Assembly: GCA_030390025.1 (NCBI GenBank)
Contig: CM059431.1
Coordinates: 120,034,001 to 120,098,000 of the forward strand
Length of the DNA: 64,000 nucleotides
Direction of reading: 5' to 3'
From: Squalus acanthias
Lineage: Eukaryota
In this document: one piece after another, positions 1,046-64,000 of the stretch
Numbering within the stretch: the first letter of the stretch is position 1
Layout: every line of letters starts with the position of its first letter
Notes under the pieces: generated by a model
Databases searched by the model: none
Seen by the model: the letters and a program-made list of their open reading frames with translations, nothing else
Told to the model about the DNA's origin: nothing
Program-made: the position numbers and the translations under genes

Positions 1046-2768
1046 GAACATAAGAACATAAGAAATAGGAGCAGGAGTAGGCCAATCGGCCCTTCGAGCC
1101 TGCTCCGCCATTCAATAAGATCATGGCTGATCTGATCCTCACCTCAAATCTAAAGAACACAAGAAGTAGGAGCAGGACCTGGCCACTCAGCCCCTGGGCC
1201 CACTACGCCACCCACAGGGCCTCGACCGATCCGAACTCAGCCTCATGTCCAATTTCCTGCCCGCTCCCCATAACCCCTAATTCCCTTTACTTCTAGGAAA
1301 CTGTCTATTTCTGTTTTAAATTTATTTAATGATGTAGCTTCCACAGCTTCCTGGGGCAGCAAATTCCACAGACCTACTACCCTCTGAGTGCAGAAGTTTC
1401 TCCTCATCTCAGTTTTGAAAGAGCAGCCCCTTATTCTAAGATTATGCCCCCTAGTTCTAGTTTCACCCATCCTTGGGAACATCCTTACCGCATCCACCCG
1501 ATCAAGCCCCTTCACAATCTTATATGTTTCAATAAGATCGCCTCTCACTCTTCTGAACTCCAATGAGTAGAGTCCCAATCTACTTAACCTCTCCTCATAT
1601 GTCCACCCCCTCATCCCGGGGATTAACCGAGTGAACCTTCTTTGTACTGCCTCGAGAGCAAGTATGTCTTTTCTTAAGTATGGACACCAAAACTGTATGC
1701 AGTATTCCAGGTGCGGTCTCACCAATACCTTATATAACTGCAGCAATACCTCCCTGTTTTTATAATCTATCCCCCTAGCAATAAAAGTCAACATTCCGTT
1801 GGCCTTCTTGATCACCTGCTGCACCTGCATACTAACTTTTTGATTTTCTTGCACTAGGACCCCCAGATCCCTTTGTACTGCAGTACTTTCCAGTTTCTCG
1901 CCATTAAGATAATAACTTGCTCTCTGATTTTTCCTGCCAAAGTGCATAACCTCACATTTTCCAATATTGTATTGCATCTGCCAAATCTCCGCCCACTCAC
2001 CCAGCCTGTCTATATCCCCTTGTAGGTTTTTTATGTCCTCCTCACTTTCTACTTTCCCTCCCATCTTTGTATCATCTGCAAACTTTGATATGTTACACTC
2101 GGTCCCCCCCTCCAAATCGTTAATATAGATTGTAAAGAGTTGGGGACCCAGCACTGACCCCTGCGGAACACCACTGGCTACTGGTTGCCAGTCCGAGAAT
2201 GAACCATTTATCCCAACTCTCTGCTCCCTGTTAGATAACCAATCCTCCACCCATGCCAGAATATTCCCCCCAATCCAGTGATTTTTTATCTTGAGCAATA
2301 ATCTTTTATGTGGCACCTTGTCGAATGCCTTCTGGAAGTCTAAATACACTACGTCCATTGGTTCCCCTTTATCCACCCTGTACGTTATGTCCTCAAAGAA
2401 CTCAAGCAAATTTGTCAGACATGACTTCCCCTTCATAAAGCCATGCTGACTTTGTCCTATTAAATTATGTTTATCTAAATGTTCCGTTACTGTCTCCTTA
2501 ATAATAGACTCCAAAATTTACCCACCACAGATGTTAGGCTAACTGGTCTATAATTTCCAGCCTTCTGCCTACTACCCTTTTTAAATAAGGGTGTTACATT
2601 AGCAGTTTTCCAATCTGCCGGGACCTTTGCTGAGTCCAGGGAATTTTGGAAAATTATTACCAAAGCATCCACAATCCCTACTGCCACTTCCCTCAAGACC
2701 CTAGGATGTAAGCCATCAGGTCCAGGGGATTTATCCGCCTTGAGTCCCATTATTTTACTGAGTACCAA
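1046..2768 (-). mobile_element. 5'-truncated CR1 LINE (ORF2 reverse transcriptase and 3' UTR)
   Basis: ORFs 2487..2768 and 1243..2514 (frameshifted): KSPGPDG, NYRPVSLTS, YLDFQKAFDKV, GVPQGSVLGP, FADD; agaacata-repeat 3' tail at 1046. Confidence 0.95.
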
Positions 2769-3135: not shown

Positions 3136-4290
3136 CGTGAGTGCACTAGTAGGTCTTCCTCTTGGAATAGAAGCATGACTGGGAGAATGAAAGAGGCCAT
3201 GCAGAGCAGGACAAGCTGCTAGAAGAGGGAGGAGGAGGAGGGGGAGAAGGGCTCTCAGCAGGAGACCATACCGTCCAAGGTGTTCAGGGTGCAATTGTCC
3301 TATCTGACCCTCACTCAGGAGGTCATCACTGAAATCTGCCCACTGCTGCAGCCACAACTAACAACCACAGAACAGGGCAAGGACTGCATTGCAAGTAGCT
3401 GTGACGGCGACCATGGCTATGAATTTTTATGGATCTGGTTCCTCCCAGGCTGGTGCTGGAAACATCTTGCAGTTTGCCATCCGCTGTTGCATAATGGAGG
3501 TCACTGAAGCTCTCTATTCAAAGAGAGCTAACTTCATTTCATTCCCTCTTGCCAGAGATAAGCAGGCAGAGCAAGCACGAAGATTTGCAAGGTTTGCAAG
3601 GTTTCCCCATGGTGCAGGGTGCAATTGATTGCGCGCACATTGCTTTGTGGGTGCCGCATGTCAACTCTGCCATGTACCGGAACTGAAAGGGTTTCCACTC
3701 TCTCAACATCCAGCTGGTGTGTGACCATAGGCCGCGCATCATGCAGGGCAATGCCCGATATCCTGGCAACAGTCATAATGCCTTCAATCCACGCAGTCCG
3801 CTGTGCCAGCTGTATTTCAGCCACCAATGGTGGCTACTGGGTGACAAGGGCTATCCACTGACGACATGGCTCATGACTCTGGTTCACAACCCACGTACAT
3901 GTGTGCAGCATGCATACAATGAGAGCCATGCTACCACAAGAAATGTAATATAGCAGACCATGGATGTGCTGACACAATGATTCATTCCGCTGCCTGGACC
4001 GCTCTGGAGGAGCCCTGCAGTACTCACTATTTGTAGTGGAATGCTTCATGCTGCACAACCTTGCCATCATGAGAGGATTGCCCTGCCACCACCTATCAGG
4101 TGAGAAGCTGAGGAGCAGGACGCGAGGAGGAGTGGAGGAGCAGAGGAGCAGAAGGAAGAGGAGGACGTGGAAGAGGAGGAAGAGAGGGAGGCAGAAGATG
4201 AGGAAGAGGAAGGGAGGCAGCAACCTAGACACTTACTTTCTGCCTGCGCAGTACATGAAGAACTCATTCAAGTACGATATCATTAACCTC
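3136..4290 (+). pseudogene. Harbinger (HARBI1-like) DDE transposase, disrupted
   Basis: Motifs across frames: GAIDCAHIAL, YPGNSHNAF, LLGDKGYPLTTWLMT, YNESHATTRNVI, CFMLHNLAI, then purine-rich acidic tail; stops and frameshifts. Confidence 0.85.
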
Positions 4291-4489
4291 AACCCCAATT
4301 ACCCATTCACCAACAGTCCCACACTCCTTACCTTCCCTCTGTCACTGACTATCACATTTTCCTCTCGGCCACAATGCAAAAATAAAAATCAACACAAAAT
4401 AAACATTGCAAAACAAATTTATAAATGAAATCATGACATATTGCATACAAACTTAAACAAATCACCCTTGTGCATTCCCTCAGTGCCTG

Positions 4490-5522
4490 TCTTTCATGTG
4501 CCTTTTCCTGTCCTAGTGCTCCTACGCAGTGTTAGCCCAGTGGATGCAGCATGGCTGGTGGAAGGCTGCTGAATTTCAGTGGAGGAAACTGCAGATGGCC
4601 TTGGAGGACAACCTCGAGTAGCTCTGGGCCTAGAAGGCCCAGCTTCAGACGGCATCATCTCAACATGGGCAGCAGCTGTCTGGGCTGGTTAGCTGACAAG
4701 CTACAGCAAGGGCACTGGCGGAGTAGCAGGGGTGGGAACACGAATGCTGTCATCATGAGAGAGGACAGCAGGCTCGTGCTCCATGGAGCCACTGCCACTC
4801 CCCGGGGCGGCGCTTCTGCAATCCTAGTAATCTGTTGGAGGACAGGTTGATGAACTACTGTGACACCCTGCAAGCCCCTGTGAACACTGGTATCCACAGC
4901 CATGATGGCAGCAGTCTGAGCTTGCATGGCAACAAGCTGACCTTGCTTGACTTCAGTCTGAGTTTCCATTGCAGCACTCAGACTTCTGGTGGAAGCTACT
5001 TGTACTGCAATGGAAGCTGAAACATCGGCCAACAGACGCTGCATCATGGTTGGGTCCACAAGTGTATTGATGGAATGGGCCACCAGTTCCATGCTGGAAG
5101 GGATGGGCTCCAAACTATGCGCAATACCCTGTGCCAAGTTGGTGCTGGACACCTCCATGCTCCTTGACATTGAACACAGGCTTTCTGGCAGGCTTCCCAA
5201 TGCACCAAGCATTTTGTTGTGTACACCCATCAGCCTTCATCTGTAGCCTGGCCCATTAAAGTCCTCATCTGAGTCCTCTGCAGCAGAACTCATGTGCGAC
5301 CTTGGTCCAGCGGGCTGGCACCTGCGCTATCCTTGCCCCCTGCCCTGGCTGCAGCGCACTTGTGCCCGATGTCTCACCACATGCCGATCCCACCTCTAAT
5401 CTATCCTCAAAAATACGCGCAGTGTCAGTATCTGTGCTGGTAGCTGCTAGTGTGAAATCAAGTGATGGTGTGTTTTCATCATCACTCTCTTCCTGCCTAG
5501 CCAGATTGCAATTCTTGGGTAA
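4490..5522 (-). pseudogene. Last exon of Harbinger Myb/SANT-like partner gene
   Basis: ORFs 5265..5543 and 4655..5230 (acidic then coiled-coil-like); acceptor ctttcag at 5523-5529; convergent with the transposase. Confidence 0.65.
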
Positions 5523-6689: not shown

Positions 6690-6859
6690 GTGAGGGGAGA
6701 AGGGGAAAAGTAAGAGGTGCATTCTTAAACCATCTGCAGTTTGTAATTTAGAAGAGAGTGTGGGATGATGGGGAAGTGGGATGTGAGAAGAAGGATTATG
6801 TATGAGGATACCATATTCTTTGATGGTTTCAGCCCTGCCACAGGCCACGGCCTCAGCAA

Positions 6860-8481
6860 TGTAAGGGTTTGGACGTGTCTCTCAGAGACGGTGCTGGTGC
6901 GAGGTTAGGCCTTCGTTGCCTAATACTATTGCTTGCTCTGGTCTCCGGCCAGCCCTTTTGCAATAAGCACCTGTGAGTGATTCGACCCACTCACCCTTAT
7001 GGTTCTAACACTGGACTTAGGTGCAGGGAGCAGTAATGCAGAGAAAACTCAAATAGACCCGGTTGAATAGTACGAAATGGAAATCTTTATTGCATAGCGT
7101 CCAAAATCATGAAGTACATGTCATAGGCGCAAATTAACGAGAGTACAAGTATACATACATTCATAAAGCTTGGTCTATGGAAATGAAGAATGAACGGCAC
7201 ATCGTAAAAAGGGGAACACATTATACTTTAACCTTAATAAAACCACCCTCCCTTAACAATACCTACACTACGTCTAGATTTGTAGGATCGGGTAACATGC
7301 TCACCACTCGTGTTACTTCGGAGAATTTTAAAGTGAGGCACTCGGCTCGTTTCGCTGCAGCGCCTGACTGTCACGTGTTTGGAAGGGTCTCTGTACCCCA
7401 CTTGTTTATTTTCGCTGCTGCGACAAGCAGGCCAGACTCCCTGTTGTCATGAAGAACTCGACAGAACTCGGAAACGTTTGTAAAATTCAAAGAAGAGTCT
7501 TCCTGTGCTCGACACTGGTTGTCGGTAGACTTCAATGAAAAGTTCTTTATTTATATTTTCGGGCGCGGTCGGGGTTTACTGACCGTGGCGGCACGTGGAT
7601 TCTTCTCCTCTTCTTCTCGTCTCGTCTCGTCTCTTCGGGCCTCCGGGTCCAGACACCGTTTACCGACACTCGGGATGGTGCACCCTGTTACTTGCCCTTG
7701 TCGGGGCAGCTCGTTCCGATTGAGCTCCACCCAACATCCGAATAACCGACCAGTACGGCTAAAAGTCAAGAGTCAACAAAGTCCAGCCCTAAAGAAGAGC
7801 TTCAGCCAGCGATCGAGCGAGTCAAGGGAATAAGAGAGCGATGGACATTTGTTCACTATAGTTATAGTGATGTGTTCCCTTATCTCCCGCTCAAATCTTA
7901 ATGTTTGTCCTTTGTGTAATACTGGTGCACAAAACTCCCAGCATGGGGCGGTTGTCTTCTTTAACGGGTTTCGGTAGCACCTGAAACTGGCCAACTATCC
8001 GTTAATGTTTTCCCCATTGTTGACCCAGCCAGGATGTGTACGAATCGTCTCCCTGACTGGTTTTGGGGGCCCCCGAATACTTGCTTAATCACCCGTCAAT
8101 GTCTCTCTCATTGTAGAGCCGGGGGGGTATTTGTGTATTGATGTGTCTGGATGGGCCTTCGATTGCCCAGTACAATGGTCCTTACTTGTGCATGAAAATG
8201 ATTCCAGCACTTATATCTTTGCTATTGTTCCAAATGCAAACGGGTTGCATCCTGTCTTTATCAATGTTTACCGAGTATGATCCAATCTTATATTGAATGT
8301 TTATTCGACGCCATTTTGTCTGCCCACTGTGTCTCTGGAAGCTTCTGCCACGATGCTCAGCGGCCATTTTACAGGCTTCTGTGTCCTTTATTATCAGGAC
8401 AGCATTTTGTTTAATAAAACTGATCAAACGAATCTGTTTCTCTTATGTTATTTCGAATCGCGATAATTGCGAAACTTTACA
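6860..8481 (-). repeat. 3' LTR (1622 bp)
   Basis: Near-identical to 13902-15527; on - a TATAAATA near 7549-7556 and AATAAA at 7086-7091. Confidence 0.95.
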
Positions 8482-8493
8482 GTCCCTCCTGTT
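8482..8493 (-). promoter_or_regulatory. Polypurine tract
   Basis: Minus strand aacaggagggac immediately before the 3' LTR TGT. Confidence 0.65.
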
Positions 8494-8609
8494 GATGCAA
8501 ATAACTCTGCTTATCGTATCAATTAAAAATTGTGGTGAGCAAAATTATCCCAATTCTCCACATCCAAACACTCCCGGAAATTAAACTATCTATGGCCTCC
8601 ATGCAGTCC

Positions 8610-10620
8610 TCATTTCCCAGAGAAAATTACATTGTCTAAACTTGGACAAACCGTAGGCATCATTGCCTTTAAACTTAAACTTACAATTCGCTGTTGTGCC
8701 ACTTGAACTTCAGCCCTGGGTTTAAAACAGAAACTGCTGTCACTCACCGGACACCGGCTGTGCTGTCCATGCTGGTAGTGTTGCACTGCAGTGGTGACGC
8801 AATACGTTCCACCCCCTATGTATGCCACCTGTGGGGGCACATGATCTTGTGTCATTGCTTCCATGGTGCAATTCATGGGCTTCGCGCCAGCCGTTCTGAA
8901 CCCGCATTGTGGTGTTAAAAAGGCATTCAAGTGCTGGGGACACAGTATGATGTGTGCTCCCCGGCCACGACAACCCGATAGGTCGGTACCTGTCATCGTT
9001 TGCTCCCAGCGGATGACGTAAGGTGGGACCGCTGCGTAGCGAATGTGGGCTCCCCCCTGAATGACACCAATGTTCTCCACCCGGTACACCGGGGCGGGCT
9101 TTGCTGTGTCGCCCAACACCGGCATCCATAGTACTATACCCATGATGGTATGATTTGACTGTCCGCAGTCCACTGGGACTGGGTATGCCTCTGAGGCTAG
9201 CCTGAGCTGGCACGGGCTTAATGCGTTCTGAAAAGGGTGGAGCGCCTGCAGGTGTTTGTTACTTATCCAGGACGGGACCAAACCTTGTTTTAAATCCTCC
9301 AAATTACTGCGGCCCTCGCCCAGTAACCACGCCCCGTATAGTACGCACACCTCGTTCTGCGCAGCTTGGTCGGATGCATTCCGATCTTCCCTGTTCAGGG
9401 CATTTACCGTTCTCGCGTGCTTCTCCAGCTCTGCTATAATCTCTTTTAAGTGTAGTGTCATGGCCTGGTGCTCATGTACTTCAGACCCTACAACCTTGTT
9501 TTCGCTTGTGAGGATGCTTTTTAACTGTGTTTTTAAACCGTTGATCTGGGTCTGCAGCTCCACATTGTCTAGAGCGTTGACCACAGACGTTCCCGTATTA
9601 AAAGCAGTGAACACATCGTTCACAACACCCCTTCTTTGTCTCCCCACCTGACCCAAAACTTTGTGTGGTGTGGTGTATAAGCTTGTTTTGTCAACCTCCG
9701 CAAAATCAAACTCATAAAATTGCCTGAACATGTTTGTTAACAGGACCTGGTACAATTGTTCCGTTTCTTTGGGACACCACTCTGGTAAACGCACCTCGGT
9801 GAGATTTAAAATCACCGAGGCCACCGCGTAATGTACCCCTTGATATAGTATCTGGTCCGTTGGCACCAGTACCAGACCATTCCCGGGCCCCTTAGTGGTT
9901 TTAGGGCACCCTTCCTCCTGAGCCAAAGCCACCGGAATCGTGGGTGGAGACTTGCGTGGGCGTGTGATGAGTTCAGTGGCGTTTACCGGGATCGGGGAGA
10001 AAGGAGCTCCGCACCCCCTGGTGCTGACATCCCACCTCATCCCTTTCCCGTCATCCTGCCACTGTCGTAGGAAAAAATATGGATATACCCTTGGGGCAAA
10101 CGTACTTCGATCCCCACATACAAACATATATTCCCTCATCCGGTTCCCACCATTTGTCCCAACAGACTTTCAATTGTCCGTTAGTCCCCGTAATTGTCCG
10201 ATGGGTATTGTTACCCAATCGCTCCCACTCAACCGAGGAATTTCTCATAGTCTTGCTTAACTTCCGTAACCACCACCATCGGCTCAATGGGACCTTCCCA
10301 TTGCATGTCAAACAAATCCTTTTGCCGACGGTGACGCTGATTCTGGGTGCAATGATCCTCACCCTGGGACACAGTAAAGAAGTCTCTTTGTAGGCAAATC
10401 CGGATGCGCTGGAGTAAACCGTTGAATTCGTTCCCAGCCATCCCGGCTACCTTCCCTTGTGGAAATAAGTGGCGGTTTCCTCAGCCTCTCGCTCCCCGGT
10501 CCCATCCGTTGCGATAGGGGCCGTGTCCCCGGAGCAACCGAACACAACGACATCCTTGGTGAGGCCCCGATAGGCCAATCCATATCCGATCGTTGCGAGC
10601 ACTATCAGAATCCTTTCCAT
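8610..10620 (-). pseudogene. env: env-like gene: signal peptide + Ig-like domain + F-type class I fusion glycoprotein; one stop, one frameshift, no TM anchor
   Basis: ATG at 10620 reads MERILIVLATIGYGLA; in-frame TAG at 10447-10449; CLTC...W...DEGIYVC; +1 shift (possibly the A6 run at 10072-10077) into ORF 8610..10139 with furin-like RQRR (9630-9641), heptad region and Cys-rich domain. Confidence 0.8.
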
Positions 10621-10891
10621 ATCTCCTGGTTCCTGTGATCAGATAAAATGATGTAGCCAGCCTCCCAAGAGTCTCTGGCTTTTGTGAAGGGTGAGCGGGT
10701 CCCTTGACCTCGTCTCACGTAAAAAGACATGTATGCTGGATAGACTTTAACTATTCCTATCACTAACTCCCATCATTTTACCATTTACTTATAAAAATTA
10801 AACTACAATCTTACCAAACTTAAAAACACTATAAACTTAAACTTATCCTAAACTTAACTGTACAGCGCCGCCCGTTCCCAGGGCGGCCTAC

Positions 10892-12097
10892 CTAAATTCT
10901 GCGAAGGCTGCCACGAGCTTTTCCCAGTGGCGGGGGGGCACTGACCCCTTCCTTTGATCTACCGCAGCCTGTCGCTGCTGCGCTGGGACTGGGATCTCCC
11001 TGGGCTGCCTTGAACTTACGCCTGGGGGTGTACGGGGGATTTGACCACGACTTCCTGGGCTGGGGTGTCCGACTTGACCTTCGGAGGGCTACCTTGGGCA
11101 AGATCTCCAGGGCCGACGGACCGGGAACCGAGACTACCACCGTCACGGCCTGTGGTCCCACCACAGCCGCCGGCTCCGTCTCCCCTGGCTCCGCCCCCCT
11201 GGGCTCGGGATTTGCGGTTTCCGACTCCACCCTACTTGTATGTGGAACTCCACTCGCAATCCCTATCTCCCCTGTGGGCAAGATTTCCAGGGCCGACGGA
11301 CCGGGAACCGAGACTTCCACCGTCACGGCCTGTGGTCCCACCACAGCCGCCGGCTCCGTCTCCCCTGGCTCCGCCCCCCTGGGCTCGGGATCTGCAGTTT
11401 CCGATTCCACCCTGTGTGGAACTCCACTCGCAATCCCTGTCTCCCCTATGCTTGGGTCGAGGGCGAAACCTTCGTCCTCCGACCCCACCACCTCTCCGAC
11501 CGGGTCACTACCTTGATCAAGCTCTCCGAGCTCTTCCTCATCTGAATCCCAACCCCAAGAAAAGATCCTACACTTTTCCAAAATGTCTTCTCCCCTCACG
11601 CAGGCTGCTTTACCGGCCTGTGTGCCCTGCGGTTCTACCCGGGGCTGAGAGTCCCCACTCGCAGGTTTGGCCCCTCCCCTAAGACAGGCCACCGCCCCTG
11701 CTTGTGCATTCTGTGTAATCTCGCCTGCTGGAGGCTGCAGATTTCTATTCTGTTTTAGTTTGGGCAACTCTGCTACCATGGCTTGCAACTGCGGGGTGGT
11801 GAATTCCCCCGGGGTTGTTGAGCAAACCATCCCTCTGGCTTTGGATAGGGCTTGGGTCAGACCTTTTATCCTTTCCTCACAGGGCCCATGGTTTAAAACC
11901 TCATACTCCCTGCTCCTGGCTACCCTGTAGGCTGCCTTTATGTCTCTAAGCTGCCCTTCTAGCCCATCTATTTTCCCCATTAAGCGGGCGTTCTCCTCCC
12001 GCAAGGCATGCTCTTTTAACCTGGCCTCCTTACAGGAGACCCCCTCCTGTGCGTGTCTTTCAAGGGGACACAGGTAGGCAGGCTGCACCGGTTCCAG
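10892..12097 (-). CDS. ORF2: in frame after the gag TGA; divergent Gag-like coiled coil + Pro/Glu-rich duplicated segment + basic tail
   Basis: Open for ~400 codons; TGA CTG GAA CCG GTG continues the gag frame; similar to the Gag N-terminal half; no PR, RT, RH or IN motifs. Confidence 0.65.
   Translation of the reverse strand: MEPVQPAYLCPLERHAQEGVSCKEARLKEHALREENARLMGKIDGLEGQLRDIKAAYRVARSREYEVLNHGPCEERIKGLTQALSKARGMVCSTTPGEFTTPQLQAMVAELPKLKQNRNLQPPAGEITQNAQAGAVACLRGGAKPASGDSQPRVEPQGTQAGKAACVRGEDILEKCRIFSWGWDSDEEELGELDQGSDPVGEVVGSEDEGFALDPSIGETGIASGVPHRVESETADPEPRGAEPGETEPAAVVGPQAVTVEVSVPGPSALEILPTGEIGIASGVPHTSRVESETANPEPRGAEPGETEPAAVVGPQAVTVVVSVPGPSALEILPKVALRRSSRTPQPRKSWSNPPYTPRRKFKAAQGDPSPSAAATGCGRSKEGVSAPPPLGKARGSLRRI
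11095..11447. repeat. ~180-bp in-frame tandem duplication inside ORF2
   Basis: tgggcaagatYtccagggccgacgg begins at 11095 and 11275; peptide GIASGVPH...PSALEILP occurs twice. Confidence 0.9.
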
Positions 12098-13897
12098 TCA
12101 GAAGTCTGGGTTGTATGGGGCTGTTGCTACCTCCCCGTGCAAAATCATAAGAGACCGCATGGCTCCTAACATTGATTCTATCGCATCGGGATGGATAGGC
12201 ACACCAGCTCCTTTCTCAGAGACAGGCGCTTGGGTTCGGACTGCGGGAGCTTTGTCCCTGGAGTCCTTCCAGGGATTCCTGCAGTTTTTACGCCAGTGAC
12301 CTGTCTTCCCGCACCCGTAACAAACACCACTGGTTTGTGGGGCGCGATTTCCCTCCTGATGCCACTCTTTCTGAGCCGGAGCTGCGGGCTTTGCCTCATG
12401 CACCTTTCCCTTAAGGGGACGCGCTCCCGTGCTCCTAGTGTTCCGATACCCTATGGTGAGTCGATTTAGGACAGACTCCTCCGTTGTGGCGGGGTTAGTG
12501 GGATCAAACCACGCTCTGGCCTGCTCCCTGACGTCTAGCAAGCTGTTGGCTACCATGCACCTGAGCCAATGAGCTTTCCCGGCGCCGTCCAGATAGGTGC
12601 GCGCTGGCGCACCTGGGCAGCTACGCTGGTATACTGGCCACAGTCTGTCGGCGAAAACCTTCGGGGGTTCTCCCTCCATCTGTATGGTTTGACTCAATCT
12701 GACGAACGGACCTTCGTCATCCGCCCCTAACACTTCTAGGACCTCGTCCCGTAACTCCTCATAGGTTTTATTTCCCTTCTTGCTCTCATCGGAGAGACAC
12801 TGAAGGATCGAGCTATCTAAAGAGAACAGCAATATTTTGGTCTTTTCCTCATCGTCGCAGCCATTAATTGCTGCGGTCTGTTCTACTTCCCTAAAATGTA
12901 CGGAAGGGTCATCTGATTCGGACAGCTTCCGTACATGGCTAATCATTGCTCTCAGCTGGTGTGAGCTGTGGGGCAATACAAGTTGGTTCAGGACATCCCC
13001 GTCTTCCCCATTGGCTGCATTCGGGCCTCTCTTGTGACCTCGGAGCGGACACATCGGTCCCGGTCTCGACTCTACCTCCGGGGATTGTCCTACCTCGGGA
13101 ACCTCCTTCTCTATTTCCACCACTTCCTCCCTTACCCAGGTTGCCGAATAGCTGGGTGGCGCGGAGGGCACAGTGGCAAATACGTCATCTGCTTTGTCTG
13201 GTAGGGATTTTGGGAATTCCCTACCCACCTGTGGCTGGCTCGCTGATGGGCTGATGAGACACACCAAGCCGTTTGCCTTATTCAGGGCCTCTTTTAGGTT
13301 CCCTATCTCCTTCTGGCAAACACTGTGGTCGGCTCCCTCATGCCTATCCTCGAGGGCCATCTTGTATGCAGCCCTAACTCCCTTCAAGCTTTCTTCCTGG
13401 GCTTTTATCTGGTTTGCTAGGTGGGCGCACCGTTCTCTAATCCTTCCCTCGTTTAATTTTGCTTCCGTGACCTGACATTCTAGGTAATCAGTTTTAGCCT
13501 CATGGTGGTTGGCTACTATTTGGCGTTCCTGATGTAATGCATTCAATGATGCAATGAGTTTTTTTCCTCCCGTGACCTTTTCCTCCATCTCTACCTCCAG
13601 TTCCCTGATCTGAGCTGCCTGTGCCACAATGACCTGGTCCGAAAGTTGGACTTGCTTCTTGTAGCACATCAGCCAGACTGCTTTCTCCACCGACTTCTTA
13701 TGCTCTTTACTGCCTGTCCATTTGATGGCAGCGTCTAGCGGACGCTTATCCATCAGTAGGTCACTTATCCACCTTTTGGTTAAGTTAACCTTCCCAAACA
13801 CATAGTCGGCTACCCTCTCATCCATCACATTTCGCCTATTCAAACCAGGGTCTAAAACATAACTCTCCCGCTGCCAATGTCCTGCCGCGGTCGCCAT
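12098..13897 (-). CDS. gag: Gag polyprotein, 599 aa, intact
   Basis: Coiled-coil N half; PSAPPSY late domain (13148-13168); capsid MHR-like QMEGEPPKVFADRL; CX2CX4HX4C knuckle CYGCGKTGHWRKNC (~12281-12322). Confidence 0.9.
   Translation of the reverse strand: MATAAGHWQRESYVLDPGLNRRNVMDERVADYVFGKVNLTKRWISDLLMDKRPLDAAIKWTGSKEHKKSVEKAVWLMCYKKQVQLSDQVIVAQAAQIRELEVEMEEKVTGGKKLIASLNALHQERQIVANHHEAKTDYLECQVTEAKLNEGRIRERCAHLANQIKAQEESLKGVRAAYKMALEDRHEGADHSVCQKEIGNLKEALNKANGLVCLISPSASQPQVGREFPKSLPDKADDVFATVPSAPPSYSATWVREEVVEIEKEVPEVGQSPEVESRPGPMCPLRGHKRGPNAANGEDGDVLNQLVLPHSSHQLRAMISHVRKLSESDDPSVHFREVEQTAAINGCDDEEKTKILLFSLDSSILQCLSDESKKGNKTYEELRDEVLEVLGADDEGPFVRLSQTIQMEGEPPKVFADRLWPVYQRSCPGAPARTYLDGAGKAHWLRCMVANSLLDVREQARAWFDPTNPATTEESVLNRLTIGYRNTRSTGARPLKGKVHEAKPAAPAQKEWHQEGNRAPQTSGVCYGCGKTGHWRKNCRNPWKDSRDKAPAVRTQAPVSEKGAGVPIHPDAIESMLGAMRSLMILHGEVATAPYNPDF
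13879..13896 (-). promoter_or_regulatory. Primer binding site, tRNA-Arg (probably TCG)
   Basis: TGGCGACCGCGGCAGGAC is complementary to GTCCTGCCGCGGTCG-CCA, the vertebrate tRNA-Arg(TCG) 3' end as recalled; 5 nt downstream of the 5' LTR. Confidence 0.8.
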
Positions 13898-13901
13898 TTT
13901 C

Positions 13902-15527
13902 TGTAAGGGTTTTGGACGTGTCTCTCAGAGACGGTGCTGGTGCGAGGTTAGGCCTTCGTTGCCTAATACTATTGCTTGCTCTGGTCTCCGGCCAGCCCTT
14001 TTGCAATAAGCACCTGTGAGTGGTTCGACCCACTCGCCCTTACGGTTCTAACACTGGACTTAGGTGCAGGGAGCAGTAATGCAGAGAAAACTCAAATAGA
14101 CCCGGTTGAATAGTACGAAATGGAAATCTTTATTGCATAGCGTCCAAAATCATGAAGTACATGTCATAGGCGCAAATTAACGAGAGTACAAGTATACATA
14201 CATTCATAAAGCTTGGTCTATGGAAATGAAGAATGCACGGCACATCGTAAAAAGGGGAACACATTATACTTTAACCTTAATAAAACCACCCTCCCTTAAC
14301 AATACCTACACTACGTCTAGATTTGTAGGATCGGGTAACATGCTCACCACTCGTGTTACTTCGGAGAATTTTAAAGTGAGGCACTCGGCTCGTTTCGCTG
14401 CAGCGCCTGACTGTCACGTGTTTGGAAGGGTCTCTGTACCCCACTTGTTTATTTTCGCTGCTGCGACAAGCAGGCCAGACTCCCTGTTGTCATGAAGAAC
14501 TCGACAGAACTCGGAAACGTTTGTAAAATTCAAAGAAGAGTCTTCCTGCGCTCGATACCGGTTGTCGGTAGACTTCAATGAAAAGTTCTTTATTTATATT
14601 TTCGGGCGCGGTCGGGGTTTACTGACCGTGGCGGCACGTGGATTCTTCTCCTTTTCTTCTCATCTCGTCTCGTCTCTTCGGGCCTCCAGGTCCAGACACC
14701 GTTTACCGACACTCGGGATGGTGCACCCTGTTACTTGCCCTTGTCGGGGCGGCTCGTTCCGATTGAGCTCCACCCAACATCCGAATAACCGACCAGTACG
14801 GCTAAAAGTCAAGAGTCAACAAAGTCCAGCCCTAAAGAAGAGCTTCAGCCAGCGATCGAGTGAGTCAAGGGAATAAGTTAGCGATGGACATTTGTTCACT
14901 ATAGTTATAGTGATGTGTTCCCTTATCTCCCACTCAAATCTTAATGTTTGTCCTTTGTGTAATACTGGTGCACAAAACTCCCAGCATGGGGCGGTTGTCT
15001 TCTTTAACGGGTTTCGGTAGCACCTGAAACTGGCCAACTATCCGTTAATGTTTTCCCCATTGTTGACCCAGCCAGGATGTGTACGAATCGTCTCCCTGAC
15101 TGGTTTTGGGGGCCCCCAAATACTTGCTTAATCACCCGTCAATGTCTCTCTCATTGTAGAGCCGGGGGGGTATTTGTGTATTGATGTGTCTGGATGGGCC
15201 TTCGATTGCCCAGTACAATGGTCCTTACTTGTGCATGGAAAACGATTCCAGCACTTATATCTTTGCTATTGTTCCAAATGCAAACGGGTTGCATCCTGTC
15301 TTTATCAATGTTTACCGAGTATGATCCAATCTTATACTGAATGTTTATTCAACGCCATTTTGTCTGCCCACTGTGTCTCTCTGGAAGCTTCTGCCACGAT
15401 GCTCGGCGGCCATTTTACAGGCTTCTGTGTCCTTTATTATCAGGACAGCATTTCGTTTAATAAAACTGATCAAACGAATCTGTTTCTCTTATGTTATTTC
15501 GAATCGCGATAATTACGAAACTTTACA
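13902..15527 (-). repeat. 5' LTR (1626 bp)
   Basis: Direct repeat of 6860-8481, followed on - by the PBS. Confidence 0.95.
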
Positions 15528-16135
15528 GCAATGACCCTTCCAATAATGGCCAGCACCATTTCCTGCATGGGCGTTAGAAAATGCAGGCGTGCCTCTCCCC
15601 CTCTGGTTAGTTCCTTTCGCCATTGGTTGTGTGCCACCTTCTCCTGCAAGAGAGAGGGAAGTGTGTAAGTGAGTGTCATGCAATATGTTTGGGTGATGTG
15701 GCTGCCATGATTGAATAGCTGGCAGTGTGTGTAAGCTGTGAGATTTGAGTGTGAGACTTGCAGCAGTGCTAAGTGTGTCAGGGTGAGGTGAAGCATATGT
15801 ATGTTAGGTATGAGTCCTGCTTGATAGAGATTGCTGCTAGTTGAGTGATGGAGTTGTGGTGGTCTGAGCAGTGGCTGAGGCTAATGTTGCAGTTGTTAGG
15901 ATATGGCATTTGAAGATGTATTCACTGACCTTGACCAATCGTGTGAGGTTAAACATCTTGCGGCACTGCATCCAGATCCTTGGAACTAGACACCTGGCTA
16001 TCTGCTCCCACTGCTTTTTCACTGTGTATCTGGAGGGCCTCCTGGCCCCCTGTGGATACAGGACATCGCTCCTCCTTTCCCCACCTCCATCAAGACCTCC
16101 AGCTTTGGAAAACTTTGGTGCCTGCTTTCTCCCAT
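15528..16135 (-). pseudogene. Exons 1-2 of Harbinger Myb/SANT-like gene; exon 2 split by the provirus and resuming at 6859-6812
   Basis: KKQWEQIA...RIWMQCRKMFNLTR then GT donor at 15929; acceptor ttgcag at 15644, EKVAHNQ...LAIIGRVIA, continuing EAVACGRAETIKE beyond the TSD. Confidence 0.75.
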
Positions 16136-27681: not shown

Positions 27682-30490
27682 TCAGTATCCTGTACCTGCC
27701 TTCTCCCCATATCCCTTGATACCTTTATCTTTAAGAAATATATCTAACTCATTCGTCAATATATTTAATGACTTGGCCTCAACTACCTTCTGTGGTAGAG
27801 AATTCCACAGGTTCACCACTCTCTGGGTGAAGAAATTCTTGCTCATTTCTATCCTAAATGGCTTACCCCTTATCCTTAGATTATGACCCCTGGTTCTGGG
27901 CTCTCCGACCATCGAGAACATTCTTCCTGCATCTAGTTTGTCCAGACCTGTCAGAATTTTATATGTTTCGATGAGATCCCCTCTCATTCTTCTATACTCC
28001 AGCGAGTATAAGACCAATCGAAACAATATCTCCTCATATGTCATTCCTGCCATCCCAGGTATCAGCCTTATGAATCTTCGCTGAACTCCTTCCATGGCAA
28101 GAACATCCTTCCTCAGATAAGGCGACCAAAACTGCACACAGTACTCAAGGTGTGGTCTCACCAAGACCCTGTACAACTGCAGCAGGACATCCCTGTTCCT
28201 ATACTCAAACCCTTTCGCTATGAAGGCCAACATACCATTTGCCTTCTTCACCGCCTGCTGCACCTGCATGCTTACCTTCAGCGACTGGTGCACAAGGACA
28301 CCCAGGTCTCGTTGCACCTCCCCTTCTCCCAATCTATTGCCAGTCAGATAATAGTCTGCCTTCCTGTTTTTGACACCAAAGTGGATAACCTCGCATTTAT
28401 CCACATTATATTGCATCTGCCACGCTTCTGCCCACTCACCCAACCTGTCCAAATCATCCTGGAGTTTCTCGGTATCCTCCTCGCAGCACACACGCCCACC
28501 CAGCTTTGTGTCATCTGCAAACTTGGAGATATTACATTTAGTTCCCTTATCTAGATCATTAATGTATATTGTGAATAGCTGGGGTCCAAGGACCGATCCC
28601 TGCGGTACCCCACTAGTCACTGCCTGCCACTCGGAAAAAGACCCATTAATTCCTACTCTCTGCTTTCTGTCCGCCAACCAGTTCTCAACCCAAGTCAATA
28701 CCTTGCCCCAATCCCATGTGCCTTAACTTTACACGCTAATCTCTTATGTGGGACCTTATCGAAAGCCTTTTGAAAATCCAAATACACCACATCTACTGGT
28801 TCTCCCTTATCTATTTTCCCAGTTACATCCTCAAAAAATTGCAGTAGATTAGTCAAGCACGATTTACCTTTTGAAAATCCATGTTGACTTTGTCCGATCC
28901 TGTCACTGTTTTTCAAGTGCTCAGCTATTACATCCTTTATAATGGACTCTAGCATTTTCCCCACTACCGATGTCAGGCTTACTGGTCTGTAATTCCCCGC
29001 TTTCTTTCTACCACCCTTTTTGAATAGTGGGGTAACATTAGCTACCCTCCAATCCATGGGTACAGTTCCAGATTCCATCGAATGTTGGAAGGTGATCAGC
29101 AATGCATCTACTATTTCTAGGGCCACTTCCTTAAGTACCCTAGGATGTAGATTATCAGGCCCTGGGGATTTATCGGCCTACAATCCCGTCAATTTCCCTA
29201 ACACCATTTCCCTGCAAATACTGATTTCTTTCAGTTCCTCCCTTTCATCAGACCCTATGTTCTCCAACATCTCTGGGAGGTTATTTGTGTCCTCCTTTGT
29301 GAAGACAGAACCAAAATATGCATTTAATTGGTCTGCCATTTCTTTGTTCCCCATTATAACTTCCCCCGCTTCTGACTGCAAGGGACCTACACTTGATTTC
29401 ACTAATCTTTTTCTCTTCACATATCTATAAAAGCTCTTACAGTCAGTTTTATGTTCCCTGCAAGCTTACTTTCATATTCTATTTTCCCCTTCTTAATTAA
29501 TCCCTTTGTCCTCCTTTGTTGAATCCTAAACTGCTCCCAATCCGCAGGGCTACCACTTTTTCTGGCCAATTTATATGCCCTCTCCTTGGATCTTATGCTA
29601 TCGCTAATTTCCCTTGTTAGCCACGGTTGAGTCACCCTTTTTGTTTTATTCTTATGCCACACTGGGATGAACAAATACTGTAGTTCATCCATGCAGTCTT
29701 TGAATGTTTGCCATTGACTATCCACCGTCAACCCTTTGAGTGACATTCCCCAATCAATCCTACCCAATTCGCGCCTCATACCATCGTAGTTTCCTTTATT
29801 TAAATTCAGGACCCTAGTCTCTGATTCAACTACTTCACTCTCGATCTTAATGAAGAATTCTATCATATTATGATCACTCTAACCCAAGGGACCTCGTACA
29901 ACAAGATTGCTAATTAATCCTTTCTCGTTACATAATACCCAGTCTAAGATGGCCTGATATCTGGTTGGTTCCTCGACATATTGTTCCAGAAAACCATCCC
30001 GTAAACATTCTAGGAATTCCTCCTCCACAGTATTTTTACTAATTTGGTTAGTCCAATCTATATGTAAATTAAAGTCACCCATGATGACTGCTGTGCCCTT
30101 ACTGCATGCTTCTCTAATTTCCCTTTTAATGCCATCCCCAACCTCCGTATTACTGTTTGGAGGTCTATATACCACTCCCACTAACGTTTTCTCCCCCTTG
30201 TTATTTCTCAGTTCTACCCATACAGATTCCGCATCATCAGAGCTAATATCCTTCCTTTCAATTGTGTTAATCCCCTCTTTAACCAGCAATGCTACCCCAC
30301 CTCCCTTTCTTTTTTGCCTATCTTTCCTAAATATTGAATACCCCTGGATGTTGAGTTCCCAGCCTTGGCCACCCTGGAGCCATGTTTCTGTAATCCCAAT
30401 CAAATCATATTCATTTACCTCTATTTGCGCAGCTAATTCATCCACCTTGTTCCGAATGCTCCTTGCATTAAGACACAAAGCCTTCAGGCT
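27682..30490 (-). pseudogene. CR1 ORF2 (APE endonuclease + RT), fragmented
   Basis: CLNARSI, GITETWL, VYRPP, MGDFN (29879..30478); RT in 28695..29126 and 27682..28698 with FADD. Confidence 0.95.
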
Positions 30491-60978: not shown

Positions 60979-60992
60979 TGGTGACCCCGACG
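60979..60992 (+). promoter_or_regulatory. Primer binding site, tRNA-Trp
   Basis: TGGTGACCCCGACG is complementary to the tRNA-Trp 3' end CGTCGGGGTCACCA. Confidence 0.85.
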
Positions 60993-61017
60993 CTCAGAAC
61001 GTATTCCGAGCACTGCA

Positions 61018-64000
61018 ATGGCAGACACGAACGCAGTTTCCGTGAAACTGCCGGAGTTTTGGGAAAACCAGCCCGAAGCCTGGTTCCTCCAAGTCGAGTC
61101 CCGGTTCTGGCTGCGACACATCACCACAGATGGGACGAAGTACGACTACCTCGTCACATCACTCGGTAGCTGCACAGTTACGAAGGTCTGGACAGCGCTG
61201 CAGAACCCACCAGAGGAGGGCAAGTATGCACATCTTAAGGCCGCGCTCCTTAAAAAATTTACGGCCTCGGCATACCAGCGAAACTGCCACCTCCTCGACC
61301 TTCCAGGCCTCGGGGATGCCTCACCGTCAGACCTCCTCGCCCACATGCTCTCCCTCACCGACGAGAGCCCACCCGGATCCCTCTTCCGCACGCTGTTCAT
61401 CCGCCAGCTACCTCTCAGCATCCACCCAGCGATCATGGCGTCCGGCCTCACGGACCTGGAAGCCCTGGCCGATGAGGCCGACAAGCTGCTGTCCGCTCAC
61501 TCCAGCCGCGACGTCACTCCGGACCTGGCAGCCACTGCCTGGGCGCGCCCTTCACTGGCCACCACGCGGCCACAAGGCCCAGCCACCGGGCTCACGGGGC
61601 CTTCGCACCCCACTAACCCGGGCCACTGTTACTATCACGCACGGTTCGGCGCCAGGGCACAACGGTGCATACCTCCCTGCTCTTTCAAGTCCGCCCCCGT
61701 ACCAGCCCCCGCGATGGCCGTGGGCCAAGTGGGCTCCCTGCTGTACGTCACGGAGGACAAAACCGGCCGCCGGTTCCTGTGCGACACTGGAGCTCAGCAC
61801 AGCATCATCCCAGCCTCCTCCCTCGACATCCGAAAGGGCAAACGAGGACTGGCGATGGCTGCTGCTAACGGCTCGGACATCCGGACGTACGGCACCCGCA
61901 CAATCACCCTCAACCTCGCTGGTCGCCGCTACCGATGGGAGTTCATCACTGCCAAGGTGCTCTCCCCTCTCATCGGCGCAGATTTCCCGTGTGCCCACGG
62001 CCTACTGGTAGACATCCCTCGACACTGCCTCGTGGACATGAACACCATGTCCCCCATCCTGGGCGCCATGGCCCCCCGTCAACCCGCCGACATGGCGTCA
62101 CAGTGCCACGCCCGGGCCACGGATGACTACTCGGCACTCCTGGCCGAATTCCCGGCCCTTACCAATCCTACCTTCTCCGCGGAGGCCGCCAAACACGGGA
62201 TGGAACACTTCATCCCCACCACAGGCCCCCTAGTGTACGCCCACGCCCGCAGGCTGGACCCGGCCAAACTGGAGATCGCGTGGACCGAGTTTGCCACCAT
62301 GGAACAGCTCAGCATCATCCGCCGCTCCAACAGTCCCTGGGCCTCCCCACTCCACATCGCCCCCAAACCAGGCGGGGGTTGGCACTCCTGCGAGGATTAT
62401 CGCAGCCTCAACGACGCCACCACCCCTGATCGGTACCCCATGCCACACATCCAGGACTTCTCGGCTAGACTGGCCGGCCGTTCAGTCTTTTCCAAGGTCG
62501 ACCTGGTGCGCGGCTACCACCAAGTCCCCGTCCACCCCGCAGACGTCCCCAAGACGGCCGTAATCACCCCCTTCGGCCTTTTCGAGTTCCTGCGGATGCC
62601 CTTCAGCCTCAAAAACGCAGCCCAGGCATTCCAACGGCTCATGGACTCGGTCCTTCGGGACCTGAAGTTCCTGTTCGTCTACCTGGACGACATCCTGGTA
62701 GCCAGTTCCTCCAAGCAGGAACACCTCGAACACCTTCGCATCCTGTTCGGGCGCCTCAGCGACCACGGGCTCATCCTCAGCCCAGCTAAATGCCAGTTCG
62801 GCCTGGACAAGATCGACTTCCTCGGCCACCACATCACCCATGCTGGGGCCATTCCCCTGCCCACCAAGGTGCAGGCCATCCAACAATTTCCCCGCCCCAC
62901 CACCATCAAAGGCCTCCAGGAGTTCCTCGGATGGTGAATTTCTATAACTGCTTCATCCCCAAAGCGGCGTCCCTCATGAGGCCCCTGTATGAAGCCCTCC
63001 GGGGCAGGAGCGGCAAGATGGCGGTCGAATGGACGGCAGACGCGTCCGCCGCCTTCGACTCCACCAAGACCGCGCTTGCCAACGCCACCCTGCTCGCGCA
63101 CCCACGGCCCAATGCCAGGGTAGCGCTCACCACGGACGCCTCCGACCACGCGGTCTGCGCCGTGTATGAGCAGTGGGTCGACGGCGCCTGGCAACCACTT
63201 GCCTTCTTCAGCCGCCAACTACACCCCCCGGAGGTCAAGTACAGCACCTTCGACCGCGAGCTCCTCGCGCTGTTCCTGGCGGTCCGCCATTTTCGGTTTT
63301 TGCTGGAGGGCCACCCCTTCACTGCGTTTGTCGACCACAAACCCCTGACGTTCGCAATGGCAAAGACAACCGACCCCTGGTCCGCCAGGCAGCAGTGCCA
63401 GCTCGCGGCAGTGTCCGAGTTCATCACGGACATCCAACACGTCTCCGGCCGAGACAATGTGGTAGCCGACTGCCTCTCCCACCCCGCCATCCACGCCGCA
63501 CACCTGGCAGTCGACTACGCTCAACTCGCAGCAGACCAGATCACCGACCCTGATCTGCTCTCCGCACCTACTAACCTACCAGGGCTACGCCTGGCCGACG
63601 TCGCCTGTGACCCAACCGCAGTCACGGTCAAGTGCGACATATCCCTATGTCAACCTCGGCCCGTCGTCCCAGCGTCCTGGCGCCGCCGGGTATTCGAGAT
63701 TCTCCACAACCTCTCCCACCCTGGCGCCCGCGCATCCATCAAATTGGTAGCCAACCGCTTTGTCTGGTGCGGCCTTCGCAAGGATGTGCGTACTTGGGCC
63801 AACTCCTGCCTAGCCTGCCAACGGGCCAAGGTGCAGCAACACATGAGAGCACCCCTCGAGTAATTTACCGTCCCTTCGCGTATATTCGACCACATCCACG
63901 TGGACATCGTCGGGCCCCTGCCGCCGTCGCAAGGCCACACGCACTTGCTGACGATCGTTGACCGCACCACGCGCTGGCCCGAGGCAATTCCACTGACCTC
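61018..64000 (+). pseudogene. Gag-Pol polyprotein with a frameshift at ~62930 and a stop at 63861-63863
   Basis: KLPEFW gag; CYYH...C...C; FLCDTGA protease; YLDD RT; TDAS RNase H; H..SH...CLAC integrase zinc motif; HVDIVGP. Confidence 0.92.

Follow-up and report, generated by a model that had tools for sequence, protein, structure and literature searches.

Proviruses that have lost pol and are complemented in trans by intact relatives are a well-known kind of retroelement. In the classical cases, such as mouse ETn/MusD, deleted IAP elements and chicken EAV-HP (gag and env with a pol deletion), an internal deletion left the long terminal repeats (LTRs), the primer-binding site (PBS) and the polypurine tract (PPT) in place, and the shortened genomes were amplified by trans-complementation. 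Most of these families lost env, and nearly all familiar helper-dependent proviruses have shed it and spread inside the cell. We know of no classical pol-defective family with hundreds of env-retaining copies, or with an envelope of the type of the paramyxovirus fusion (F) protein. Here we describe an endogenous retrovirus (ERV) of the shark Squalus acanthias that lacks pol and carries gag, a second open reading frame (ORF2) and env. It lies at 6860..15527 of a stretch of 64,000 nucleotides (GCA_030390025.1, contig CM059431.1, positions 120,034,001 to 120,098,000), hereafter the window; all element coordinates refer to the minus strand of the window. We consider it likely that this is a single insertion from a large ERV family, made by a derivative that lost pol, is non-autonomous and is mobilised by full-length relatives.

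Several described systems are close to this element in one respect or another. Zebrafish BHIKHARI (Bik-1 and Bik-2), and chicken ENS-1 as against ENS-3, resemble it as non-autonomous ERV derivatives that depend on relatives and whose gag is open and encodes an N-terminal coiled coil (10.1101/2024.03.25.586437); Bik-1 and Bik-2, however, have gag without pol or env, whereas the shark form keeps env and a pol remnant behind gag. Snakehead retrovirus (SnRV) is described as exogenous and complex, with a genome of 11.2 kb, accessory reading frames and an Env tail of 136 residues (PMC12193657). In its Gag, a coiled coil is combined with one zinc finger (PMC2717909, PMC1224870), and its pol lies in the gag frame and is reached by suppression of the stop (PMC2717909, PMC1224870, PMC13517186). 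Lokiretroviruses, the one vertebrate retrovirus group with reported sequence similarity of Env to F of the Mononegavirales, combine gag and a dual-RNase-H pol with an Env in which a signal peptide is joined by a furin-type site, fusion peptide, coiled coil and membrane anchor (Wang and Han 2020, PMC7947760), a layout to which the shark family bears a likeness. Finally, foamy virus Env and paramyxo- and pneumovirus F ("class Ib") are reported to have a common structural core, and F is presented as a minimal scaffold that takes receptor-binding modules at its N terminus or between its subunits (PMC11468914).

The element is a complete provirus with two LTRs, as a sequence-only reading of the window had proposed. 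The 5′ LTR (13902..15527, 1626 nt) and the 3′ LTR (6860..8481, 1622 nt) both run from TG to CA, and direct reading finds the 4-bp target-site duplication TTGC on the upstream (15528..15531) and the downstream (6856..6859) side. The two LTRs are 98.4% identical: their global alignment over 1621 columns holds 23 mismatches and 2 gap events (3 columns), close to the roughly 25 differences in about 1625 positions counted earlier by hand, and gives a Jukes–Cantor distance of 0.0144. Nineteen of the mismatches are transitions and 14 stand in a CpG context. The PPT is a short purine run, AGGAGGGA (8483..8490, direct reading), one base ahead of the 3′ LTR. The PBS, TGGCGACCGCGGCAGGAC (13879..13896), starts five bases past the 5′ LTR and is, by our reading, perfectly complementary to the 3′ end of a host tRNA-Arg(TCG), made up of the 15 final bases of the gene and CCA. 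ARAGORN called the matched gene tRNA-Arg(tcg), and a pattern made of the T-loop and the PBS complement (the tRNA 3′ end) had 435 matches genome-wide against 0 for its reversed control. The primer site of SnRV, too, is that of an arginine tRNA. Genes for tRNA-Arg(TCG) also occur in long tandem arrays with a period of ~1.62 kb (L033, G000:C26:38.99-41.88 Mb; also L032), and in L033 a tRNA-Ser(GCT) gene shares the repeat unit with tRNA-Arg(TCG). The gag ATG (13897-13895) overlaps the first two bases of the PBS, leaving practically no leader between U5 and gag, so that packaging and splice-donor signals would have to sit in R/U5 or inside gag.

How old this insertion is depends on the rate chosen. 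With Han's elephant shark rate of 2.2 × 10−10 per site per year the LTR distance corresponds to ~33 My, and with the mammalian average of 2.2 × 10−9 (both rates from PMC4422223) to ~3 My. The earlier description of the copy as young thus holds for the LTR divergence of 1.4%, and in a relative sense only, since this divergence translates into anything from 3 to 33 My.

The gag gene (12098..13897) is open over 599 residues, as first read, and ends in TGA. In the protein, a coiled coil at the N terminus is followed by a capsid-like helical domain and a single CCHC knuckle. Its predicted model shows a long helix at 69-183 and further helices at 313-491; zf-CCHC is met at 525-540 with a Pfam E of 0.0025, which falls below the cut-off, and full-length Gag as a whole had nothing above the cut-off in Pfam. 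The capsid likeness of the model is weak: Foldseek returned capsid proteins of human immunodeficiency virus (HIV; E 4.9 × 10−3) and murine leukaemia virus (MLV; E 6.7 × 10−3), and 0 matches at E ≤ 0.001. The first methionine is conserved in a skate relative of 61% identity.

No protease, reverse transcriptase (RT), RNase H or integrase is present in the element. Pfam found no enzyme domain in its open frames, and when the 1437-residue Pol of a full-length relative from the same genome (L031) was compared with the element by tblastn, only residues 1233-1437 aligned; in this, both methods bear out the sequence-only reading. The place of the enzymes is taken by ORF2 (10892..12097; 401 codons from stop to stop), which follows in the gag frame directly behind the gag stop and has no Pfam match above the cut-off. 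By comparison with L031 it is a chimera. Residues 1-12 (LEPVQPAYLCPL) are the counterpart of the pol start (LKPAQPVYLCPL in L031), and everything from GAKPAS on is the acidic C-terminal tail that follows integrase in Pol (~205 residues; 10895..11675), 72% identical over 260 columns to L031 Pol 1233-1437 in tblastn and 92.6-96% in blastn. The tail contains two copies of a tandem repeat of ~180 bp, or 60 codons (11092..11447), whose copy number differs among loci (split matches at query position 2632/2633). The ~125 residues in the middle resemble two collinear parts of Gag, namely the final stretch of the coiled coil and, in the capsid region, its first helix. Thus, ORF2 reads as a pol remnant (the first ~12 and last ~205 residues) around a divergent gag piece of ~125 residues. 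The earlier description of a second gag-like frame caught this middle piece and missed that most of the frame is pol remnant. Open antisense frames of 206 and 222 codons also run through the pol tail (window 10896-11682, plus strand) and recur in other copies; they are most likely a by-product of composition.

At the nucleotide level the segment specific to the pol-less form spans 454 nt (11676..12129): ~70 nt of diverged gag end and pol start, followed by ~385 nt of divergent gag. It has no blastn match in L031. Its Gag-like part is only 36-39% identical in protein sequence to each of three gag lineages (that of its own family, that of the skate relative and a third one), which argues that the insert came from a distantly related gag and not from a duplication of the family's own. 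At the downstream junction, GGGGCCAAACC is common to the pol-less and the full-length forms, as would fit a template switch.

We presume that ORF2 is made as a Gag-ORF2 product by readthrough of the gag UGA. The same adjacency of gag and ORF2 is found in most other copies, and the stop stands in the context UGA CUA G in a full-length copy with an intact env (L042), UGA CUA A in L031 and UGA CUG G in the window, UGA CUG being the form that pol-less copies carry. A 2026 review lists UGA CUA as a type II readthrough context (Sindbis virus, O'nyong-nyong virus and a triatovirus) and mentions several fish and frog retroviruses with UGA stops (PMC13517186).

The pol-less layout is not peculiar to this copy. 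We searched for relatives in the whole 3.71-Gb assembly (3882 contigs, the window included), counting short words at ≤3 mismatches, with a reversed-pattern control that gave 0 each time. A 28-mer across the pol-less junction had 605 matches on many contigs, the integrase-end/tail junction of full-length copies 881, an RT word 1375 and an env word 3485. Hundreds of copies thus carry exactly this deletion, and env-bearing DNA is more abundant than RT-bearing DNA. A search with the internal region gave 9401 first-look candidates, 29 of which were scored, with full pol-less copies 90-97% identical on many contigs. The 454-nt segment gave 1638, and all 40 that were scored were at least 97% identical. 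Contigs C1-C3 account for 43 of the listed junction places, and in at least 21 of these an exact env word follows at a distance of 2.2-2.8 kb. From 9024 gag candidates, 73 were scored, all at least 91% identical, and 48 of them lack an internal stop; 23 end at residue 593 or 594, as in the full-length form, and 50 reach 598 or 599. Pol-less copies at four loci are flanked by four different target duplications, TTGC (window), GGAG, GGCA and CACT, while for a fifth (C3237) no LTR edge was found in two 301-bp flank pieces. In three other pol-less copies, partial LTR pairs show 5 mismatches and 1 gap in 541 positions, 4 differences in 495 and 1 in 556; some pol-less insertions are therefore younger than that of the window.

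The relative with pol that the sequence-only reading had to postulate is present in the same genome. L031 has gag, TGA and a 1437-codon frame with RVP, RVT_1, RT_RNaseH_2, RNase_H, Integrase_H2C2, rve and a weak SH3 match in Pfam, and L042 has gag, a pol with two in-frame stops, an open env of 783 codons and a 3′ LTR. Summing the parts, the full-length layout of LTR, gag, UGA, pol, env and LTR comes to ~12.6 kb. In the only pair that was aligned, the window element and L031 are 92.6-96.0% identical from the 5′ LTR to near the gag end, and again from the pol tail into env. Similarity of L031 to the window env ends at 9044; beyond it lies an open frame (9382-9903) that looks by eye like a Harbinger/PIF-type transposase and is probably an insertion into env. 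The pol-less form is not confined to the S. acanthias assembly, since its specific insert also occurs in contigs from sequencing runs labelled as three other organisms, with 1 to 5 differences over pieces of 100-300 nt, and one 301-nt contig spans the downstream pol-less junction.

On the reading that we favour, the full-length parent would have had an LTR, gag, a UGA, an in-frame pol, an F-type env with an extra N-terminal domain, and an LTR. Protease, RT, RNase H and integrase would have been swapped for the ~385-nt fragment of a distantly related gag, presumably by template-switch recombination during reverse transcription, with the LTRs, the tRNA-Arg primer site, the PPT, gag, the pol tail and env being kept. 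The pol-less genome would be transcribed and packaged by its own Gag or that of a helper, while Gag-Pol from full-length relatives present in the same cell would copy and integrate it. In this manner the derivative may have been amplified to hundreds of copies, recombining with its helpers, and possibly spreading by infection rather than intracellularly. As to the earlier proposal of a non-autonomous lineage mobilised in trans, the pol-less family with its structural genes and the pol-bearing relatives are now at hand; the mobilisation itself is what we infer from them.

The env of the window copy is broken twice, by a frameshift and by a 611-bp deletion. Residues 1-183, comprising the signal peptide and the N-terminal domain (10072..10620; 97.8% in tblastn of the full env, frame 3), are out of frame with residues 143-648, which are followed by a short out-of-place tail to the stop (8610..10166; 90.3% over 506 columns, frame 1). 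The latter part spans the F2-like part, the RQRR cleavage site, the fusion peptide, HRA and the globular domains (10166..8676). At the deletion site (near 8682; 8676..8690) blastn against L021, a copy with an intact env, jumps from 4104 to 4715, which takes out residues 649-783 with HRB, the membrane anchor and the tail; the copies for which both flanking pieces were scored show a gap of ~600-620 bp, at query 5225/5227. The 509-residue env frame noted earlier (10139..8610) is therefore genuine env sequence and a mere fragment, lacking an in-frame signal peptide, HRB and the membrane anchor. The window copy is a relic with a dead env; other copies have a full env of 783 residues.

We based the analysis of the fold on one such full env, P0001 from L021. 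It opens with a signal peptide and ~215 unmodelled residues; RQRR then precedes GVVNDVFTAFNTGTSVVNAL and a long helix, and a beta-rich region separates these from a second helix and the membrane anchor. In the AlphaFold model, built with 28 relatives, helices lie at 350-444, 681-715 and 730-765. HMMER found 49 relatives at E ≤ 0.001 among 1.84 billion representatives, and the 20 that were looked up include five sharks, one skate, three frogs and the coelacanth. With Foldseek the model had 233 matches in the PDB at E ≤ 0.001, led by human parainfluenza virus 3 F (E 1.7 × 10−12), and every match listed down to rank 50 is a paramyxo- or pneumovirus F. VIA-align, run independently of Foldseek over 48,161 chains, placed F proteins in all of its first nine ranks (Z 10.5-11.8; for human metapneumovirus F, Z 11.1 with a root-mean-square deviation of 5.6 over 281 residues), with foamy virus Env below them (8rm1, Z 8.7; 8rm0, Z 7.9). 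A language-model look-up, in turn, clustered env with the Gypsy/Baculo_F and Fusion_gly families. The predicted fold thus supports an F-type class I fusion protein, as suggested at the outset.

The support for this assignment comes from fold and not from sequence, and the following has to be set against it. The mean predicted local distance difference test score (pLDDT) of the model is 55, with values of 75-89 over ~240-310 and ~400-650, the only parts where it can be relied on, and residues 9-235 are unmodelled. Sequence and profile searches of Env against the PDB gave nothing significant (best E 0.014). In Pfam the window frames and the full-length env had nothing above the cut-off; a scan of 28 env members had neither PF00523 (Fusion_gly) nor PF12259 (Baculo_F) among the 25 of 37 families listed, the families beyond these having each matched one member, more weakly. 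One chimeric relative outside the 28-member set reached Baculo_F at E 0.0011, below the cut-off.

The N-terminal region of Env (P0001 20-235, in part window 10620-10072; pLDDT < 50) is possibly a receptor-binding module. It lies as an extra ~215 residues ahead of the F core and in this recalls the modules that the F scaffold is described to accept (PMC11468914). Hints of an immunoglobulin-like domain are faint: Ig_3 at E 0.27, V-set at E 0.045 in a relative, and one relative labelled "Ig-like domain-containing" in UniRef. Fragments of the env family are also annotated inside host genes in public gene models of a sawshark and a horn shark (P0004, P0009, P0012 and P0035), under the labels Niban 1-like, ZFP2-like, cadherin-related 5-like and fbxo15 isoform. 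They represent either chimeric annotations or pieces of env that became exons.

We then asked where the family belongs among retroviruses. The Pol of L031 has a tether (RT_RNaseH_2, 470-558) and a second RNase H (RNase_H, 650-792), a dual arrangement common to all retroviruses. Against solved structures it scored 234 bits with the RT of xenotropic MLV-related virus, 233 with MLV RT, 214 with foamy virus protease-RT, 141 with Ty3 RT alone and ~55-62 with HIV RT; the best solved relative of its integrase is that of prototype foamy virus (PFV; 110 bits). The nearest named relatives of Pol are "NYNRIN-like" proteins of three frogs and the coelacanth, 44-45% identical over RT-RNase H. A quick maximum-likelihood RT tree, drawn with no named reference viruses and with 7 short rows left out, set 16 retrovirus-like rows apart from 22 gypsy rows (support 100), and placed the shark family with the frog and coelacanth rows outside a clade of ERVs with an MLV-type integrase C-terminus (support 98). 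An errantivirus (Ty3/gypsy) affiliation was rejected on the position of the RT outside the gypsy rows, at that same support of 100, and on the presence of the tether and a retroviral RNase H.

The RT motifs of the shark family are LPQGFHNSPSIFH, QYVDDLLL and LDISNGFWSIPL, and together with its frog and coelacanth relatives it reads LPQGFHNSP(S/T)(I/L)FH…QYVDDLLL. By eye, among the RT rows that PMC7947760 prints in its supplement, this RT most resembles that of SnRV (LDISNGFWSI, CQY.FAFTF, QQYTW..LPQGFH.SP.IFHQ, QYVDD.LL and K.NPKK). Further points of likeness are the Gag, with its long helix at 69-183 and its CCHC knuckle at 525-540 set beside the coiled coil and the single zinc finger of SnRV, and a pol in the gag frame. 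The best reading, one made by eye and not a computed placement, is accordingly of a lineage that looks SnRV-like in RT motifs and Gag architecture. The two differ in that the shark family is endogenous, in its Env tail, which by eye measures ~20-30 residues, and in its gag stop, UGA CUA as against UAG GGC in SnRV.

Our initial reading, that the family is a lokiretrovirus and would be the first in cartilaginous fishes, was dropped upon comparing the RT motifs, and we now regard it as unlikely. The F-type fold of Env and the dual RNase H would suit it, as would the position of the family and its frog and coelacanth relatives outside the clade with the MLV-type integrase, and frogs and the coelacanth are lokiretrovirus hosts (PMC7947760). 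However, LPQGFHNSPSIFH, QYVDDLLL and LDISNGFWSIPL are all missing from the 24 lokiretrovirus consensus translations given there, which read CPFGY and IYVDDIL; in that supplement, LPQGF and QYVDDLL are first met in the reference alignment, and only there (PMC7947760). Further, lokiretrovirus Env matches PF00523 at E 2.2 × 10−7, a match that the shark family lacks, and Wang and Han (2020) report no lokiretrovirus from the 6 chondrichthyan genomes that they screened (PMC7947760). Our literature search for lokiretroviruses in sharks found no paper treating both.

A foamy-like (spuma) ERV, the F core being found in foamy Env as well, is very unlikely. Foamy-like ERVs are reported from cartilaginous fishes, Spuma ERVs are mentioned, along with Epsilon ERVs, from Chondrichthyes (PMC10699275), and the foamy Env structures among the matches (8rm1 and 8rm0), the PFV integrase as best solved relative, the N-terminal coiled coil of Gag and the long LTRs all lean this way. 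Against them stand a Gag with a CCHC knuckle, a pol that continues the gag frame past its stop, Pfam results without any foamy Env, Gag or protease family, and an RT that reads QYVDDLLL where the foamy rows of the reference alignment read VYVDDIY (PMC7947760), besides the higher VIA-align scores of F. Shark env differs from both foamy Env and F in having no sequence similarity to them and in standing within an orthoretrovirus-like gag-pol genome, and from foamy Env in having a single N-terminal signal peptide in place of a leader peptide with a second membrane span.

Taken together, one possible reading, which we offer tentatively, is of a third deep lineage with an F-type ("class Ib") Env beside foamy viruses and lokiretroviruses. 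It would have an orthoretrovirus-style Gag, readthrough and SnRV kin, would occur in sharks, skates, the coelacanth and frogs, and would include a pol-less satellite that recombines with its helpers. As part of this same tentative proposal, the satellite would bring its own capsid and fusogen genes and take only the enzymes from others; it may outnumber its helpers, may be present in several hosts and, given an LTR pair with 1 difference in 556 positions, may have been active recently.

Evidence on the exchange between the two forms comes from a second pol-less variant, in which gag and the integrase-end/tail junction are no more than ~240 bp apart (all 3 loci retrieved). Here, the insert runs for its first 240 nt and then passes into the last integrase codons (…SREYEDLN followed directly by QCKLYKPGAQGPITGAKPAS…), and this integrase-end sequence is otherwise carried by full-length copies only. 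Deletion alone could not turn either variant into the other. Most simply, pol-less genomes would have recombined with full-length ones, which implies that both were copied together and suggests that they may be co-packaged.

Selection was assessed by pairwise Nei–Gojobori estimates. The median dN/dS is 0.34 for gag (range 0.21-0.46; 28 pairs of 8 open copies), 0.24 for env (0.19-0.44; 6 pairs of 4 open copies) and 0.70 for ORF2 (0.42-0.81; 45 pairs). Hence, gag and env diverged under purifying selection, and ORF2 much less so. Three of the four open env copies sit in pol-less elements. The insert has a pooled pS of 0.037 and a pN/pS of 0.73 (253 pairs from 23 locus records, some overlapping one copy), and is less diverse than gag (median dS 0.087) or env (median dS 0.10), in keeping with recombination between the two forms.

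Several of these results tell against a helper-dependent form that spreads with its own gag and env. The dN/dS values include only copies with open frames. It may be that env was under purifying selection while in full-length genomes and passed from there into the pol-less copies by recombination; with the insert younger than the diversity of gag and env, and with recombination at work, a need of the pol-less genomes for their own env is not proven. The word counts hinge on the rate at which each word decays and are not copy numbers. No RNA record was listed for the junction region, and the four runs checked were contigs, which attest presence and not transcription. Lastly, the RNA 3′ of the gag stop showed no stable fold in three contexts, being no better than shuffles (z −0.88, +0.93 and +0.76), so that the proposed readthrough follows from frame and stop context alone.

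The low dN/dS of gag and env, and the 48 of 73 scored gag copies without an internal stop, could also arise if these genes had been kept in the pol-less copies for use by the host, in the manner of zebrafish BHIKHARI Gag or the syncytins, and not for spread; the former is indeed a gag-only non-autonomous family with a host role (10.1101/2024.03.25.586437). We hold this to be highly doubtful, since hundreds of dispersed copies and near-identical LTR pairs fit recent spread better than a fixed host gene, and the missing RNA record for the junction counts against host use as well. Some copies of the family do lie in tandem: six pol-less junctions ~6.4 kb apart (G000:C3:64286158-64318268), two pol-less copies 7.4 kb apart (G000:C3:163239468-163252755) and two full-length gag copies 11.9 kb apart (G000:C13:72624379 and 72636258). 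That pol-less copies multiplied without a helper, by segmental or tandem duplication as the arrays on C3 might suggest, or that the same deletion recurred independently, is nevertheless extremely improbable in view of four copies with four different target duplications, of junction matches spread over many contigs, and of foreign junction sequence without a blastn match in L031, which simple deletion cannot recreate. The other long open frames of the window, at 1246-2517 (minus), 27685-28722 (minus) and 60985-63860 (plus), look like unrelated retroelements, with LINE-type RT fragments and a 650-codon frame at the right end of the window.

What is unusual about this shark family is the retention of env at hundreds of copies, the chimeric frame behind gag, and an F-type Env in a genome that looks neither lokiretroviral nor foamy. 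The family is a large and recent component of the genome, with ~3,500 matches to its env word. A form that gave up only its enzymes, held on to gag and env, and rose to hundreds of copies would amount to a natural retroviral satellite. As such it would test whether it is the structural genes or the enzymes that act as limiting "private goods" within a retroviral swarm. If confirmed, an envelope that is F-type only by fold, in an orthoretroviral-looking genome, would widen the link between retroviral and paramyxovirus-type fusogens and bear on the origin of the retroviral envelope; and if the family does belong to a third deep lineage of this kind, F-type Env would become a candidate for the ancestral retroviral envelope.

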